64,000 nt of DNA from Octopus sinensis (lineage: Eukaryota): positions 106,454,001 to 106,518,000 of the forward strand of contig NC_042998.1 in NCBI RefSeq assembly GCF_006345805.1. The letters run 5' to 3'. The position numbers were made by a program, and so were the translations under genes. The notes under the pieces were generated by a model. That model was not told the DNA's origin, made no database searches, and saw nothing but the letters and a program-made list of their open reading frames with translations. Positions within the stretch are counted from its first letter, which is position 1. Each line of letters opens with the position of its first letter. Below are positions 20,972 through 61,960 of the stretch, one piece after another.

Positions 20972-21707
20972 TATATCAAATGTGAGGATAAAATTCTTTT
21001 CGAAAAAAATATTTTCTCGAAAAAAATTTCATCAATGGCCAGCATATTAAAAAATACCTTTAACGGTTAAATTTATAAACAATTCATAAATTTCTGTCGA
21101 CCTTTTTTCGAGTAGCGTGCATATTGTGGAAAAATTATATGGTTAATGGACAATATGTCCAATTTTTCGGCATACTTGGCATTAGAAATTTTTTCCTTTG
21201 CCCTCATTTATGAATTGTTTATAAATTTAACCGTTAAAGGTATTTTTTAATATACTGGCCATTGGTAAAATTTTTTTGGAGAAGATATTTTTTATGGGAA
21301 AAGAATTTTATCCTCACATTTGATATAAATTTAAGCGTTCACTTCTGAACTAACTAACTCACTCTGTGAGAGACTCAGTTCAAATCGCACATGCCTCGAA
21401 TGGGCTGGAGTATTTCTATTTTGGATGTATTTGGGGTACTTAGTTGTGCCCATGACTTAGTATTTGCTTCTTCCATGGGTATGAGTAAGTATCTCATTTA
21501 GTTCTTTTGCCACATGTATCACTGACGAAGAGAGGGTTCTTAGTAGCTAACTCTGAAATCGGTCCGATATGGTAATAATGGAATTTTTTAGAAATTTCTG
21601 TCGACCTTTTTTTGAGTATTGTGAAAAAATTATATGGTTAATGGTCAATATGTCCAATTTTTTGGCATATTTGGCATTAGAAATTTTTTACTTTGCCCTC
21701 ATTTATG

Positions 21708-55378: not shown

Positions 55379-55837
55379 CACGTTAAAATGCTCGAACCGA
55401 TCGTGACGATGCCGGACCCTCCGGCCCCTGTGCAGGTGGCACGTAAAAAGCACCCAATCCACTCACGGAGTGGTTGGCGTTAGGAAGGGCATCCAGCCGT
55501 AGAAACTCTGCCAGATTCAGACTGGAGCCTGGAGCGGCCCCTGGCTTCCCAGACCCGGTCGAACCGTCCAACCCGTGCTAGCGCGGAAAGCGGACGTTAA
55601 ACGATGATGATATATATATATATATAAATATTTGAGTAGTTGAATGAATTATCTTATTAAGGATAATTCGAAAGATAACCAATACCTGGGTAGCAAATTC
55701 ACATCAGAAAGAACACGGTTGAAGCTACGTCCCTAGGGCATAGACTACGTGTCTTCGTGCGGAAATTTGTATGTTTATTTTTAAATTATAAGTATATGAA
55801 AGAATGGAGTTGAACGACTAGTTAACAAATATCCTTT

Positions 55838-55920
55838 ATTCTCGACATGTTTCGAAGACTGCATATTCTTAATTCCGAAGGAATAAGGAGTACATTATGC
55901 AGATTTCTCATCAGGAAAAT
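55838..55920 (-). ncRNA. Type I hammerhead ribozyme motif, intact core (left arm)
   Basis: Minus: attttc CTGATGA gaaa...cttc GAAA catg TC gagaat. Confidence 0.8.
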
Positions 55921-56013
55921 CAAGGAACTTATGTCGACATCAAAATGCATAAAAAACTGAGAGCAGTCAGCTAAAAGTTTTTTGTGCATTTTGATGTCGA
56001 CATAAGTTCCTTG

Positions 56014-56098
56014 ATTTTCCTGATGAGAAATCTGCATAATGTACTCCTTATTCCTTTGGAATTAGGAATATGCAGCCTTCGAAACATATGTCGAGAAT
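56014..56098 (+). ncRNA. Type I hammerhead ribozyme motif, intact core (right arm)
   Basis: attttc CTGATGA gaaa tctgcata...tatgcagc cttc GAAA catatg TC gagaat; GUC triplet. Confidence 0.88.
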
Positions 56099-56150
56099 AA
56101 AGGATATTTGTTAACTAGTCGTTCAACTCCATTCTTTCATATACTTATAA

Positions 56151-56220
<70 letters not shown>

Positions 56221-57546: not shown

Positions 57547-57589
57547 ACTGTATGGTCGTTTAGGCATTTGAATTTGTGGTAGAATTTGA

Positions 57590-57960
57590 ATGTGAAAAAA
57601 GCGGTGATTGCATGTGCTTAGTGCCTCGTAATGTTTATTTTGCAGTGTTGGAGAGTTGTGCTTTAATATGTAAAGTGCCTCCTTCAGGCAAAATTTGCAG
57701 GTTGAGCGTTGACCTCGGTAGGGAAGCCCTGAGTCCAGTATGGACCATGATAGAGTATAGGGTATATTTGTATTTTTGAGATGATGTATGTGGTTGGTGA
57801 CTGTGGTAGATTTACTATGTTTATCATATCTAAAAGAATGGAGGTGAGCAGCATATATTTGCTTAAAACTTTTGGTTAATCCTATGTATATGGCAGTAAA
57901 GTTGTGTAATAGATTAAGGACAGTGCATTTGTAAATTAAACAAGTTGTAAATAAACAAGT
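57590..57960 (-). pseudogene. GIY-YIG endonuclease of a Penelope-like element (Naiad/Chlamys-like)
   Basis: LIYKCTV...IYIGLT..FKQIY..HLHSF...CKFCLKEALYI...LQNK..E..STCNH. Confidence 0.8.
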
Positions 57961-58285
57961 TGGAACTAGTGTTTTGTTTTGAGACACTCTACCAGTACAC
58001 GAAGTTTCAAATTATTTAGTTAACTAGAAAGATCTGACGTCCAGGCAACGAAAATGAAAAGATCCCAAGTTGGAACTAGTGTTTTGTTTTGAGACACTCT
58101 ACCAGTACACGAAGTTTCAAATTATTTAGTTAACTAGAAAGATCTGACGTCCAGGCAACGAAAATGAAAAGATCCCAAGTTGGAACTAGTGTTTTGTTTT
58201 GAGACAATCTACCAGTACACGAAGTTTCAAATTATTTAGTTAACTAGAAAGATCTGACGTCCAGGCGACAAAAATGAAAAGATCC
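57956..58285. repeat. 110-bp tandem repeat, three copies
   Basis: caagttggaactag at 57956, 58066 and 58176. Confidence 0.97.
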
Positions 58286-58481: not shown

Positions 58482-58513
<32 letters not shown>

Positions 58514-58516
<3 letters not shown>

Positions 58517-59586
58517 AATACAAAAAATGGGACAAGAATGCAACAGGTGACAACAAAACATCCAGACAGTTAGATTATACAAAAAGGGACAAGAAAAATC
58601 AAATATGGGTCATTCAGAGTTTTCTTTCCTCAGTTGAGTTCCAGGTCATCTTTGCAGTTTTTGCTGGTTATACTTGAGACTGCTCCAATCTGGCCAGCCC
58701 CAAGGAAAATCTAAGCTATGAGCACTAGATTCCTTGGAAGAAAGCAGCAAATGTATATGAAAACAAGGATGGAAAAAAACGGAGAAATGGTACACATATA
58801 CAAATGCAATCAACAGAACAGTAACAACAGTGCCTTTCGACTAAGGATGAATTAAATTAAGCTGGAATGTGTGGAAGTGAAGCCTTACAGCAGGGACATA
58901 AGAGATGACAGGCATGGGAAGGAATATAGATGTTGCACAGATGGTAGTCGAACCAAGAAAGAAAGGTCAGGCTTGGCAGAACACTGGTCCCGTGGAAGGA
59001 AAGGAGAGGGGTAGAGGCAGAGGAATAGAAGAATTAGGGAGGGATGAGAAAGAAAGAGAAAAGAAAAGAGACAGAGTGAAGTGAAAGAGGAGGGAAGGTG
59101 AGAATGAAAGGAAGGCCAAGAAATGTGAGAGGAGGAGTGAAAGAAAGAAGAGTGAAAAGAACGAAGTAAGTGTGAAGGGGCTGAAAGAAAGAAAGAAAGA
59201 ATAAGAGAGTCGTGCAAAATTAAGATATGTATATATATATATATATATATATATGTACTTACATATAAGATACCAAAGTGTACATATACCACTATATGTA
59301 TATAAGAAAGAATGCAAAAAATGAGACAAGAATACAACAGTTGACAACAAAACATCCAAACAGTTAGATGATACACAAAGGGACAAGATAAAACAAGGAC
59401 AGGTCATTCGGAGTTTTCTTTCTCAGTCAAGTTCCAGATCATCTTTGCAGTTTCAGCTGGTTATACTTGAGATTGCTCCAATCTGACCAGCCCCATGGAA
59501 AATCTAAGCTAAGAATACTAGATTCCTTGGAGGAAAGCAGCAAATGTATATGAAAACAAGGATGGAAAAAAATGGAGAAATGGTAC
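58514..59586 (-). mobile_element. Partial-tandem non-coding repeat (direct repeats 58514-58794 and 59308-59586), probably a PLE-type terminus
   Basis: Two diverged ~280-bp copies, each abutting TA-rich microsatellite and holding a multi-helix motif. Confidence 0.65.
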
Positions 59587-59587
59587 A

Positions 59588-59740: not shown

Positions 59741-59989
59741 TGTACATAGATTTACATATACACACCCATATATGTATAAACAAATATACAGATATACATG
59801 CAAATATACAGTTACATGTACTTCATACAAATATATACGTAAACATATTTATGTAAGTATATATGTATATACATATAGACACATATACACATGGATAAAT
59901 CCTGTGGAGAAACTTCTATAGTTCATTCACTGGGAGTCTAGGTGTTATTAGAATATGTAAAGTGTACTTTAAAATATATAATACTGGAT

Positions 59990-60720
59990 TCATGTAAACC
60001 AAATAGTTGTTAAAAAAAGAGGATGTTTGAGCACAATATCAGCTGATTTAATGGAAATTATAGTTTCTGCAAAATTAATTGAATAATGGAGGATAGATTT
60101 AATTATATTTACTCACATACATCAAACTGGAATAAGTCATTCTTTTTTTTTATTTTGGATAGTATTCATTACAGAGATTGAATTTTTCCATAGGTGTAGA
60201 GATGGTAGGCACTAAAGCTGAAGAATAAAAGAATCAATTGATAATTCAAGAGTCTGTTTTTAAAGGATTTATATGTCCAGTAAGGTTTAATTTGTAGGTT
60301 CTTAAAGAGATGTAAGGTTCCTGTGAAATTATAATATTAGTTCAATTTTCGATATCAGAGTAGGTAACAATATTTTTTGCTAATATATTGACTTCATCTA
60401 AGGCAGACATTTTGTATGTGCTTGAAATAGTACTCTATATAAGTTGGCAATATATTTGTTTGTCAATGCCATAGACATTTTCCATTTTCATCAGATTTTG
60501 CTAAAATGTTATTTAATTCTTTATCTTGTTGATTTTACTGCATAAGTCTTTTTGGAAGTTGTTCATTTTACTATATTGGTAGTAAATAACTACTTTTGGA
60601 AGTTATTATTAAACTTACTCTTTTCTTTTTATCATGAAGGATAAATCATTTTCAAATTGTTGAAAATTAATGTTGTCTTGGAGGAATTTAGTAGTTTTTA
60701 GTTTACGACTGCTTATTTTA
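59990..60720 (-). pseudogene. Highly degenerate PLE reverse transcriptase N-terminal region (Naiad-like)
   Basis: Pieces across frames: FENDLSFMI, NNFQKDL, NVYGID, ISSTYK, PYISL, INPLKTD, FQFDV. Confidence 0.55.
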
Positions 60721-61819
60721 TTTTTGTTTTTGTCTTTTTTTTGTTTTTGTTGTTGTGCTGTCAGCAAAGGGTTGTTTTTTCTCAAAAAAGTGTTTTTTCT
60801 ATTTATTTTTAATAAAGTTTTGTGTGTGTGCGTGTGTGTGTGTGTGTCTGTGCATGTGTGAGTGTGTGTGTGTCTGTGCGTGTGCATGCATGTGTTAAGC
60901 GCCTAGAATCGGTTTCCCAGGGTGAGGCTGGAATATTTTTCATCATAAACAGGAATATGCTTTGGCTACAGCTTCATTGGTAACAGTCTATATCTAAAAG
61001 TACTTGACTGGAAATAGGAACATATATTTATGTTAGAAATGTCAATTTATAAAGTTATAAACAACCATCAAACTTTTATTGATAAAAGAACTCAATACTG
61101 ATAACAGAGTTGAATTTAACATGCTTATAGAGTTGACTGCAACTTCAAGTTTCACCTAGCTTATTCAGCCAGTGCGCAAAATGCAAAATTATTTCCTTAT
61201 ACTGATGACATTCGTCTTGTAAATATTTTAACAACAAAGAAATGACTAAAATCACTTACTACAAAACACAATTCAATTGATTTTTGTTAAACACAACAAT
61301 ATGTTATATGTGTACATTCTCACAAATTCACGAAACTTTATCTTGATCAATGAAAATTAAGATCAATTATTTTTTGCTTCTGAATTTTGTCATGTTTTTA
61401 ACCTGTGCTCACAAACCATGAGCCACCCACTTGATTATTGTATCATGATATCAACAAGACTGGGAAAGGTATATACTACATTGTTCCCTTGGCTTTGACA
61501 CACACATGCACATGTGCACACACACACACATATGCACACACACATATTACAATTTTACTTAGGCATAGCAAAATGAATAACCAGTTGTTAGAATTCATAT
61601 GCTTTAGAACAAAGTAATTGATGAGTACAGAGCATAATATTAATTATTGACTGACAAGGGAATGAGAATTATGTAATCAACATCATTAGCTTAGAGGTGT
61701 ATATATGTATATGCATATAAATATATAAACTTACTTGGAAATAGATGTGTGGCATTCAATTAAATAATAATACAAATAATATATGTATGTATATATATAT
61801 ATTTATATATATATGCATA

Positions 61820-61960
61820 TATGGGTACAGGATGTCACCAACTGTGTAAACAACATGAAGCACGAGAACAAATGAGTTAAATATGCAAACAATAAGAGAA
61901 AAACATGGATAACAGGACAAGAAACATGGAGAACAACCCTTCATCAGTTGTCGGTTATCG
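61820..61960 (-). mobile_element. Short terminus with CTGATGA, truncated by the adjacent RTE-tail element
   Basis: Minus gacaaCTGATGAaggg, then T-rich ttcttgtcc tract ending at TA repeats; same layout as the 58514 element. Confidence 0.45.

Follow-up and report, generated by a model that had tools for sequence, protein, structure and literature searches.

A hammerhead-like ribozyme fold opened between A9 and G10.1, predicted to self-cleave, in Penelope-like repeats of Octopus sinensis

The stretch of DNA analysed here, which we refer to as the window, comprises 64,000 nucleotides of the Octopus sinensis genome (contig NC_042998.1, positions 106,454,001 to 106,518,000). Its minus strand carries one full unit of a dispersed, often tandem, protein-free Penelope-like repeat, termed family A, and, upstream of it, a second copy of the 3′ end of the same unit. 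Each of the two contains a decayed RNA domain in which the core motifs of the hammerhead ribozyme stand in the non-circular block order S-G-C, with the chain entering and leaving the predicted structure between core bases A9 and G10.1. The fold is a real and strongly conserved RNA structure, and cleavage by it is predicted. The features of the locus, all on the minus strand, are listed below; the parts of the fold are those of copy 1.

58510..59292, minus strand: full unit of family A, a protein-free Penelope-like repeat with a period of 793 bp, in the order leader, TA tract, pyrimidine-rich middle, ribozyme, and T-rich tail running into a TA microsatellite
59293..59587, minus strand: upstream copy of the 3′ end of the unit, 5′-truncated, forming a pseudo-long-terminal-repeat (pseudo-LTR)-like partial tandem
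58611..58753, minus strand: ribozyme domain, copy 1, predicted dead
59405..59546, minus strand: ribozyme domain, copy 2, predicted dead; predicted cut site 59471/59470
58738..58743, minus strand: helix IV, 5′ strand; its partner is the tail 58626-58621, directly after A9
58753-58748 with 58616-58611, minus strand: outer extension of helix IV
58700..58737, minus strand: hairpin V, its last base immediately before G10.1
58694..58699, minus strand: helix II, 5′ strand (G10.1 = 58699); partner 58667-58662
58687..58693, minus strand: 5′ strand of the helix linking stems I and II; partner 58647-58641
58672..58683, minus strand: block S (helix III 3′ strand, GUC triplet, helix I 3′ strand); predicted cut 58678/58677
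58654..58667, minus strand: block G, made up of the 3′ strand of helix II, GAAA (decayed here) and the 5′ strand of helix III
58627..58639, minus strand: helix I 5′ strand and CUGANGA (58633-58627)

Read from 5′ to 3′, the domain begins with the 5′ strand of helix IV, hairpin V, the 5′ strands of helix II and of the linking helix, and block S (helix III 3′ strand, NUH cleavage triplet, helix I 3′ strand), and continues with block G (helix II 3′ strand, GAAA, helix III 5′ strand), the 3′ strand of the linking helix, the 5′ strand of helix I, CUGANGA and the 3′ strand of helix IV. Helix IV starts at the base after A9 and ends beside the first base of hairpin V. As in hammerheads, helices I, II and III abut the core with the A15.1-U16.1 and R10.1-Y11.1 pairs, and a linking helix of 5-9 bp is in place as the tertiary contact between stems I and II. 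The sequence-only reading of this locus had described a scrambled, pseudoknotted fold belonging to none of types I-III, and this description held: instead of the circular C-G-S order of those types the blocks follow the cyclic order S-G-C, with a doubly pseudoknotted core and a linking helix. It had also noted that helix II is unlinked to CUGANGA, which is correct for the 5′ strand of that helix; what it overlooked was helix IV, which bridges the gap between A9 and G10.1.

The two copies lie on the minus strand where they were first located (G10.1 at 58699 in copy 1 and 59492 in copy 2), 793 bp apart and with 89% identity over 296 nt. Neither is intact, as had been recognized from the letters, and both are likely dead. 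Copy 1 has lost G12 and C11.1, each replaced by A, its GAAA is decayed, and mismatches are present in helix I and in the linking helix. Copy 2 has AUC as its triplet, a 16.2/15.2 mismatch and a broken CUGANGA; the CUGAGAA that had been reported there results from the deletion of one base, not from a substitution.

A search of the 2.7-Gb genome with family A retrieved 4748 candidates, 40 of which were scored (the candidate figures given for this and the other families are first-look counts, not copy numbers). The majority sequence was derived from 33 distinct copies (35 aligned, with two pairs of duplicate rows each reduced to one). U16.1 is present in all 33, C17 in 29, G12 in 23 and C11.1 in 21; CUGA is kept in 32/33 at each of its positions, and N7 is G in 15 copies, C in 13 and U in 4. 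The CpG positions reconstructed earlier from the two window copies alone agree with this majority. CUGANGA, GAAA and NUH, whose lack in the family consensus had been named beforehand as grounds for rejection, all belong to the majority sequence, and both window copies deviate from this set of core bases. As for the extra, i.e., linking, helix, its pairing is real, but the closing strand AAUCUGG (19/33) is commoner than the GAUCUGG (13/33) of the original proposal; both pair. The partial-plus-full tandem arrangement of the window was found again elsewhere in the genome (L009/L010). In an Rfam scan of the window, no ribozyme family appeared among the 150 listed of 199 matches with E ≤ 5.

Six families with this architecture, A, A2, B, C, D and E, were found in the genome. 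Their helices differ in sequence, and all share one order, namely helix II 5′ strand, linking helix, cleavage site, GAAA and, last, CUGANGA. Contigs from four public runs of four organisms (328, 2376, 17 and 16) have predominantly A16.2 and U15.2 rather than G and C, and it is by this majority that subfamily A2, with 1130 matches in the genome, was identified. Family B (2313 candidates) is represented in the window by the following copy.

61822..61960, minus strand: family B copy, 5′-truncated, with helix I 5′ strand at 61953-61948, CUGAUGA at 61947-61941 and the helix IV tail kept

The equivalent position of CUGAUGA in this element had been pointed out in the sequence-only reading, and fuller family B copies indeed share the topology, with all six helices present in other sequences. 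For family C, a 20-mer from the published tail of the Naiad_Ovul element gave 647 matches (reversed control, 0); at one locus (L076) a family C copy lies downstream of a piece of reverse transcriptase (RT) that ends directly before the 3′ untranslated region (UTR). Family D (1520 candidates, the best 40 at 98-100% identity) forms tandem units of about 672 bp and has helix IV without hairpin V, while family E (3698 candidates, the best 40 at 95-100%) has units of about 767 bp. All three core motifs are intact in 15/34 A, 9/13 A2 and 23/24 D copies. When the families are compared, each of the four bases occurs at N7, whereas H17 can be A, C or U and in no case G; the pair most often seen at 10.1/11.1 is G10.1-C11.1 in every family.

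A strict descriptor of the fold gave 24 matches in 612 kb, comprising 22 family members with core scores of 20-29.5 and two strays (17.5 and 18.5); on 1.2 Mb of dinucleotide-shuffled DNA it gave two matches with a top core score of 16. Since the descriptor was drawn up after families A-C were known, it is circular for these, but families D and E were recovered by it unprompted, and 17 of 20 family E loci passed it. In an alignment of 71 copies (34 A, 13 A2 and 24 D) made on sequence only, 93.1% of cells were paired, compared to 19-39% with the partners slid, and two-sided cells numbered 236 against a shuffled mean of 95. Changes on both sides were seen in five of the seven linking-helix pairs and four of the six helix I pairs. 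In a cross-family tally, columns of helices I, II and III pair across A-D despite differing sequences, and the same is true of E; it is this tally of structure-anchored, descriptor-passing copies, together with the published consensi described below, that supports helix II.

The junction helices were examined by folding with a program that cannot model pseudoknots. An unconstrained fold of one family A-type copy (L015) gave helices IV, V, the linking helix and III (z -2.9). When flanks only were folded, IV and V appeared together in six of seven copies and IV alone in the seventh, which belongs to family D. The combined IV+V score was equalled by 0-7 of 400 flank shuffles in each of the nine hairpin-bearing copies tested. 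For the direct helix IV of family D, a simple score was not significant (57/400 shuffles as good), but a duplex energy test allowing bulges was passed as well by only 5/500 shuffles. In another A-type subfamily, located on the minus strand of L215 near oriented position 2482, hairpin V has undergone compensatory changes and helix IV is longer, with linkers of 2 bases.

The closest known relatives are the permuted hammerheads of Eckert 2023 (PMC10085705), whose available text defines blocks C, G and S, each assumed to be uninterruptible. The validated non-circular permutations reported there are SGC (583 sequences), CSG (two unique sequences from soil DNA) and one weak GCS; in vitro cleavage is documented for the SGC and CSG ribozymes, which depend on the linking helix, and the only named genome in that text is that of the weak bacterial GCS, with none from animals. 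The octopus fold shares with them the cyclic block order, the doubly pseudoknotted core, a linking helix that joins stems I and II at their far ends, and a similarly short linker from S to G. It differs in that the ring is opened inside block C, at A9/G10.1, through helix IV and, in most families, hairpin V: no stem II strand lies within 1-2 bases of CUGANGA, family B alone being ambiguous. The earlier view that the topology is undescribed thus stands for the point of opening but not for the S-G-C order and the extra helix, both of which are in that paper; only the opening point between A9 and G10.1 is new relative to the published permutations, as judged from sequence. The published CSG search pattern demands stem II straight after CUGAUGA, and core insertions in Perreault 2011, as far as its available text goes, are of 1-2 bases only. 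In the literature searched, coverage of which was incomplete, we found no description of a core-opened wiring or of permuted hammerheads in Naiads.

Two further systems invite comparison. Canonical Penelope-like hammerheads and animal non-LTR retrozymes are likewise built of tandem units that encode no protein and each hold one hammerhead, an organization seen in families A (793 bp), D (about 672 bp) and E (about 767 bp). However, their hammerheads are of type I, often minimal and dimer-dependent, while the present families lack the type I hammerhead and have a full helix III and a linking helix, and their fold is predicted to be active in monomeric form. It would escape type I descriptors, and type I is all that was searched in the accessible part of a recent retrozyme preprint (bioRxiv 10.64898/2026.07.22.740005). 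The PK hammerhead (Zhan 2024, PMC11300833) likewise has a pseudoknotted hammerhead core and a helix named IV, but there, according to the text available, the pseudoknot takes the place of helix II and has helix IV as its stem, and the connectivity is pistol-like; in the octopus fold helix II is retained and helix IV bears the chain ends.

The fold is housed in the 3′ repeat of its carriers, which are Penelope-like elements and include autonomous Naiads. In the available text of Craig 2021 (PMC8557442), Naiads are reported without canonical hammerheads, with isolated core words annotated as ‘HHR_core’ and ‘HHR_half_core’. We searched File S5 of that work for four spellings of CUGANGA and for record ends, and parsed the hits by eye; the resulting counts are lower bounds, since line wraps hid at least one match (Hpol). 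The split form opened at A9/G10.1 was recognized in 10 of the 54 Naiad consensi (Bfor, Chem-3, Amil, Aacu, Anas, Movir-2, Plae, the record before Ppla, Obim and Ovul), whose carriers include a comb jelly, cnidarians, an acanthocephalan and octopuses; the Naiad_Aacu version has two mismatches. Intact type CSG was found in seven (Parc, Nbra-1, -2 and -3, Hcon, Hpol and, probably, Asuum): the six named nematode consensi and the probable Asuum end in a complete CSG with a linking helix of 8-16 bp. Were A9 connected to G10.1 and the ring opened at another place, type CSG would result, as in these nematode Naiads. By eye, neither form could be parsed from the CUGANGA places of the spider, horseshoe-crab and ostracod (Dst1-4) records or from the ends of Naiad-2_Skow, Mley, Ppac, Movir-1 and Chem-1/2/4. 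The ostracod elements Naiad-1 to -4_Dst have a conserved C-run and CUGACGA in a long structured 3′ UTR, possibly another variant.

How could a core with a chain break at this point remain active? The A9-G10.1 linkage is an exposed one in the hammerhead core structure. Penelope-like minimal hammerheads, in the available text of Cervera 2014 (PMC4209133), accommodate an unpaired base at the 5′ terminus of stem II, and from this tolerance and the core structure we take the site to be exposed and tolerant of insertion. With helix IV and hairpin V stacked end to end, the base following A9 and the base preceding G10.1 would exit at one point, so that the A9·G12 pair could still stack on G10.1-C11.1. 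The IV/V coaxial stack very probably acts as a splint across the gap, allowing the standard core to form and a predicted cut after H17, and self-cleavage itself, as judged from sequence and fold, appears highly probable. Each tandem repeat would then cut at NUH and give unit-length RNA with 5′-OH and cyclic-phosphate ends; the several helices would hold these ends together, which would promote circularization and more-than-unit reverse transcription, and the latter would yield the partial tandems observed. Cleavage, circularization and more-than-unit reverse transcription have been proposed for Penelope-like hammerheads (PMC4209133, text available in part), and by analogy it is probable that tandem cleavage here releases unit-length RNA whose ends rebuild the ribozyme, favouring circularization and insertion as partial tandems. 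For the reading as a whole, i.e., core motifs in non-circular S-G-C order in a fold that is likely self-cleaving and has the entry and exit of its chain between A9 and G10.1, we estimate a probability of about 0.8.

Several observations weigh against this reading. Helix IV at A9/G10.1 breaks into a block taken to be uninterruptible, activity in that configuration is a prediction only, and in the known alignments insertions between CUGANGA and its stems do not exceed 1-2 bases (PMC10085705, available text). The check by helix covariation gave a divided answer: the helices pair, but pairs changed on both sides numbered 12 against a shuffle mean of 11.3 (207/500 shuffles as high), the covariation in the 71-copy alignment represents about three subfamilies rather than 71 events, helix II barely covaries within it, some of the A-to-A2 changes are of the CpG-decay type, and the families were compared with one another by means of structural anchors instead of sequence homology. 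For the D, B and C copies tried, unconstrained folding did no better than with shuffles. In File S5, helix I of Naiad_Bfor has two pairs only, Naiad_Esco fits in part, with a mismatched helix II, and neither form was seen by eye in 36 of the 54 consensi, in which line wraps can hide motifs. Finally, the 40 and 20 stretches searched yielded no autonomous element that could be the parent of A, A2, B, D or E.

The interruption at helix IV and the weak helix I of Naiad_Bfor would suit a real but non-catalytic fold, in which a hammerhead-derived scaffold serves the RT of the element as a signal for binding or priming. We consider this unlikely, since the catalytic bases, A15.1-U16.1, G10.1-C11.1 and the exclusion of G at position 17 persist while the helices turn over, and since the sister CSG wiring, which cleaves in vitro, sits at the same place in nematode Naiads. 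The S-G-C order and the family B tail, which could form a helix II of 2-5 contiguous pairs before GAAA, would also agree with an ordinary SGC ribozyme that builds helix II from the tail after CUGANGA, the 5′ pairing then being either fortuitous or an off-state alternative. However, in families A, A2 and D that tail offers the strand before GAAA 1-2 pairs compared to mostly 5-6 for the 5′ strand, the linking helix directly follows the 5′ strand, and helix IV uses the tail in all families, which makes the ordinary SGC type very improbable.

Tandem units, intron-like leaders and the existence of CSG as a sister form would fit a precursor in which splicing or circularization joins A9 to G10.1 of the next unit and thereby produces a normal CSG ribozyme. 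This is scarcely credible: GU follows A9 in no family, AG precedes G10.1 in family E only, and the conserved helix IV and hairpin V would be superfluous. The broken state of both window copies and the survival of all three motifs in only 15/34 family A copies might hint at chance complementarity in a decayed repeat, but given the shuffled controls, the six genomic families and the published consensi from several phyla, this explanation is effectively refuted by cross-family compensation. Plus-strand and hepatitis delta virus-like readings were weighed by eye and dropped.

If the A9/G10.1-opened fold is what it appears to be, it would extend the scheme of six permutations and show that stem II and the catalytic strand need not be linked. 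On balance, we lean towards regarding it as a seventh natural hammerhead wiring and an ancient self-cleaving module of Naiads, from comb jellies to octopuses, that nematode Naiads switched to CSG and with which thousands of protein-free, partly very young repeats make circular RNAs in this genome; the rarest topology would then be common in animal genomes. Non-circular permutations would move from a few metatranscriptome and soil contigs to animal genomes with thousands of copies, and it would become clear how at least about a third of the published Naiad families proliferate ‘without’ hammerheads. The entry point inside the core would also offer a new handle for ribozyme switches. As a conjecture, the two published soil-DNA CSG sequences could be nematode elements.

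That the domain belongs to a repeated element was part of the original claim, and the type of repeat is now identified as Penelope-like, its carriers including autonomous Naiads; the parent of family A was not found in the stretches searched. The families here and the Naiads of File S5 have in common the 3′ UTR or pseudo-LTR location, (TA)n flanks and partial tandem and inverted copies, with 5′ truncation also observed here. Family C matches Naiad_Ovul; A, A2, B, D and E are without an open reading frame (ORF) and may or may not be Naiad-derived. Family A units thus lack the Naiad arrangement of N-terminal GIY-YIG, CxC linker and C-terminal RT, and family A is, very likely, a non-autonomous, retrozyme-like passenger. 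Of five short motifs from A and B, four had no match in the Craig supplement and the fifth had one unrelated match. Families D and E are young, unlike cephalopod Naiads, which are described as long inactive (Craig 2021, PMC8557442, available text). The same source gives an intron-like leader as a trait of Penelope-like elements; in family A it is located as follows, and its arrangement is repeated in family E.

59181..59262, minus strand: intron-like leader with GTAAGT donor, TA tract, pyrimidine tract and CAG acceptor; putatively spliced

The search for a parent covered 40 stretches near weak Naiad-like RT matches and 20 near elements with a C-terminal nuclease. Copies of A, A2, B and E lying nearby were considered as the parent's tail and rejected, being separate insertions or, in one case (L187), a junction to a truncated ORF. 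Pfam gave no match for two RT fragments. At L187:1490-1890 (near 92.69 Mb), a perfect family E unit continues via the leader of the next unit into an RT element that is 5′-truncated, young and composed of RT plus C-terminal GIY-YIG; this single junction is possibly a template switch that hints at the mobilizing enzyme. The 3′ UTRs of L185, L186, L189, L191, L192, L194 and L197, which are young Penelope-like elements with a C-terminal nuclease, contain a type-I-like motif with GAAAC, short stems and a degenerate CUGANGA.

Elsewhere in the window, ordinary type-I-like hammerhead motifs, partly decayed, lie within other repeats at 21522 and 23298 (plus strand). A decayed reading frame at 59900-60800 (minus strand), which we take to resemble the N-terminal part of a Penelope-like RT, is not continuous with family A. 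We also take a C-terminal fragment at 57580-58285 (minus strand) to be GIY-YIG-like, and three near-identical 110-bp tandem copies at 57956-58285 precede it. At 55765-56171 there is a long inverted repeat, the 112-nt arms of which are 96% complementary, with CUGAUGA on either strand.
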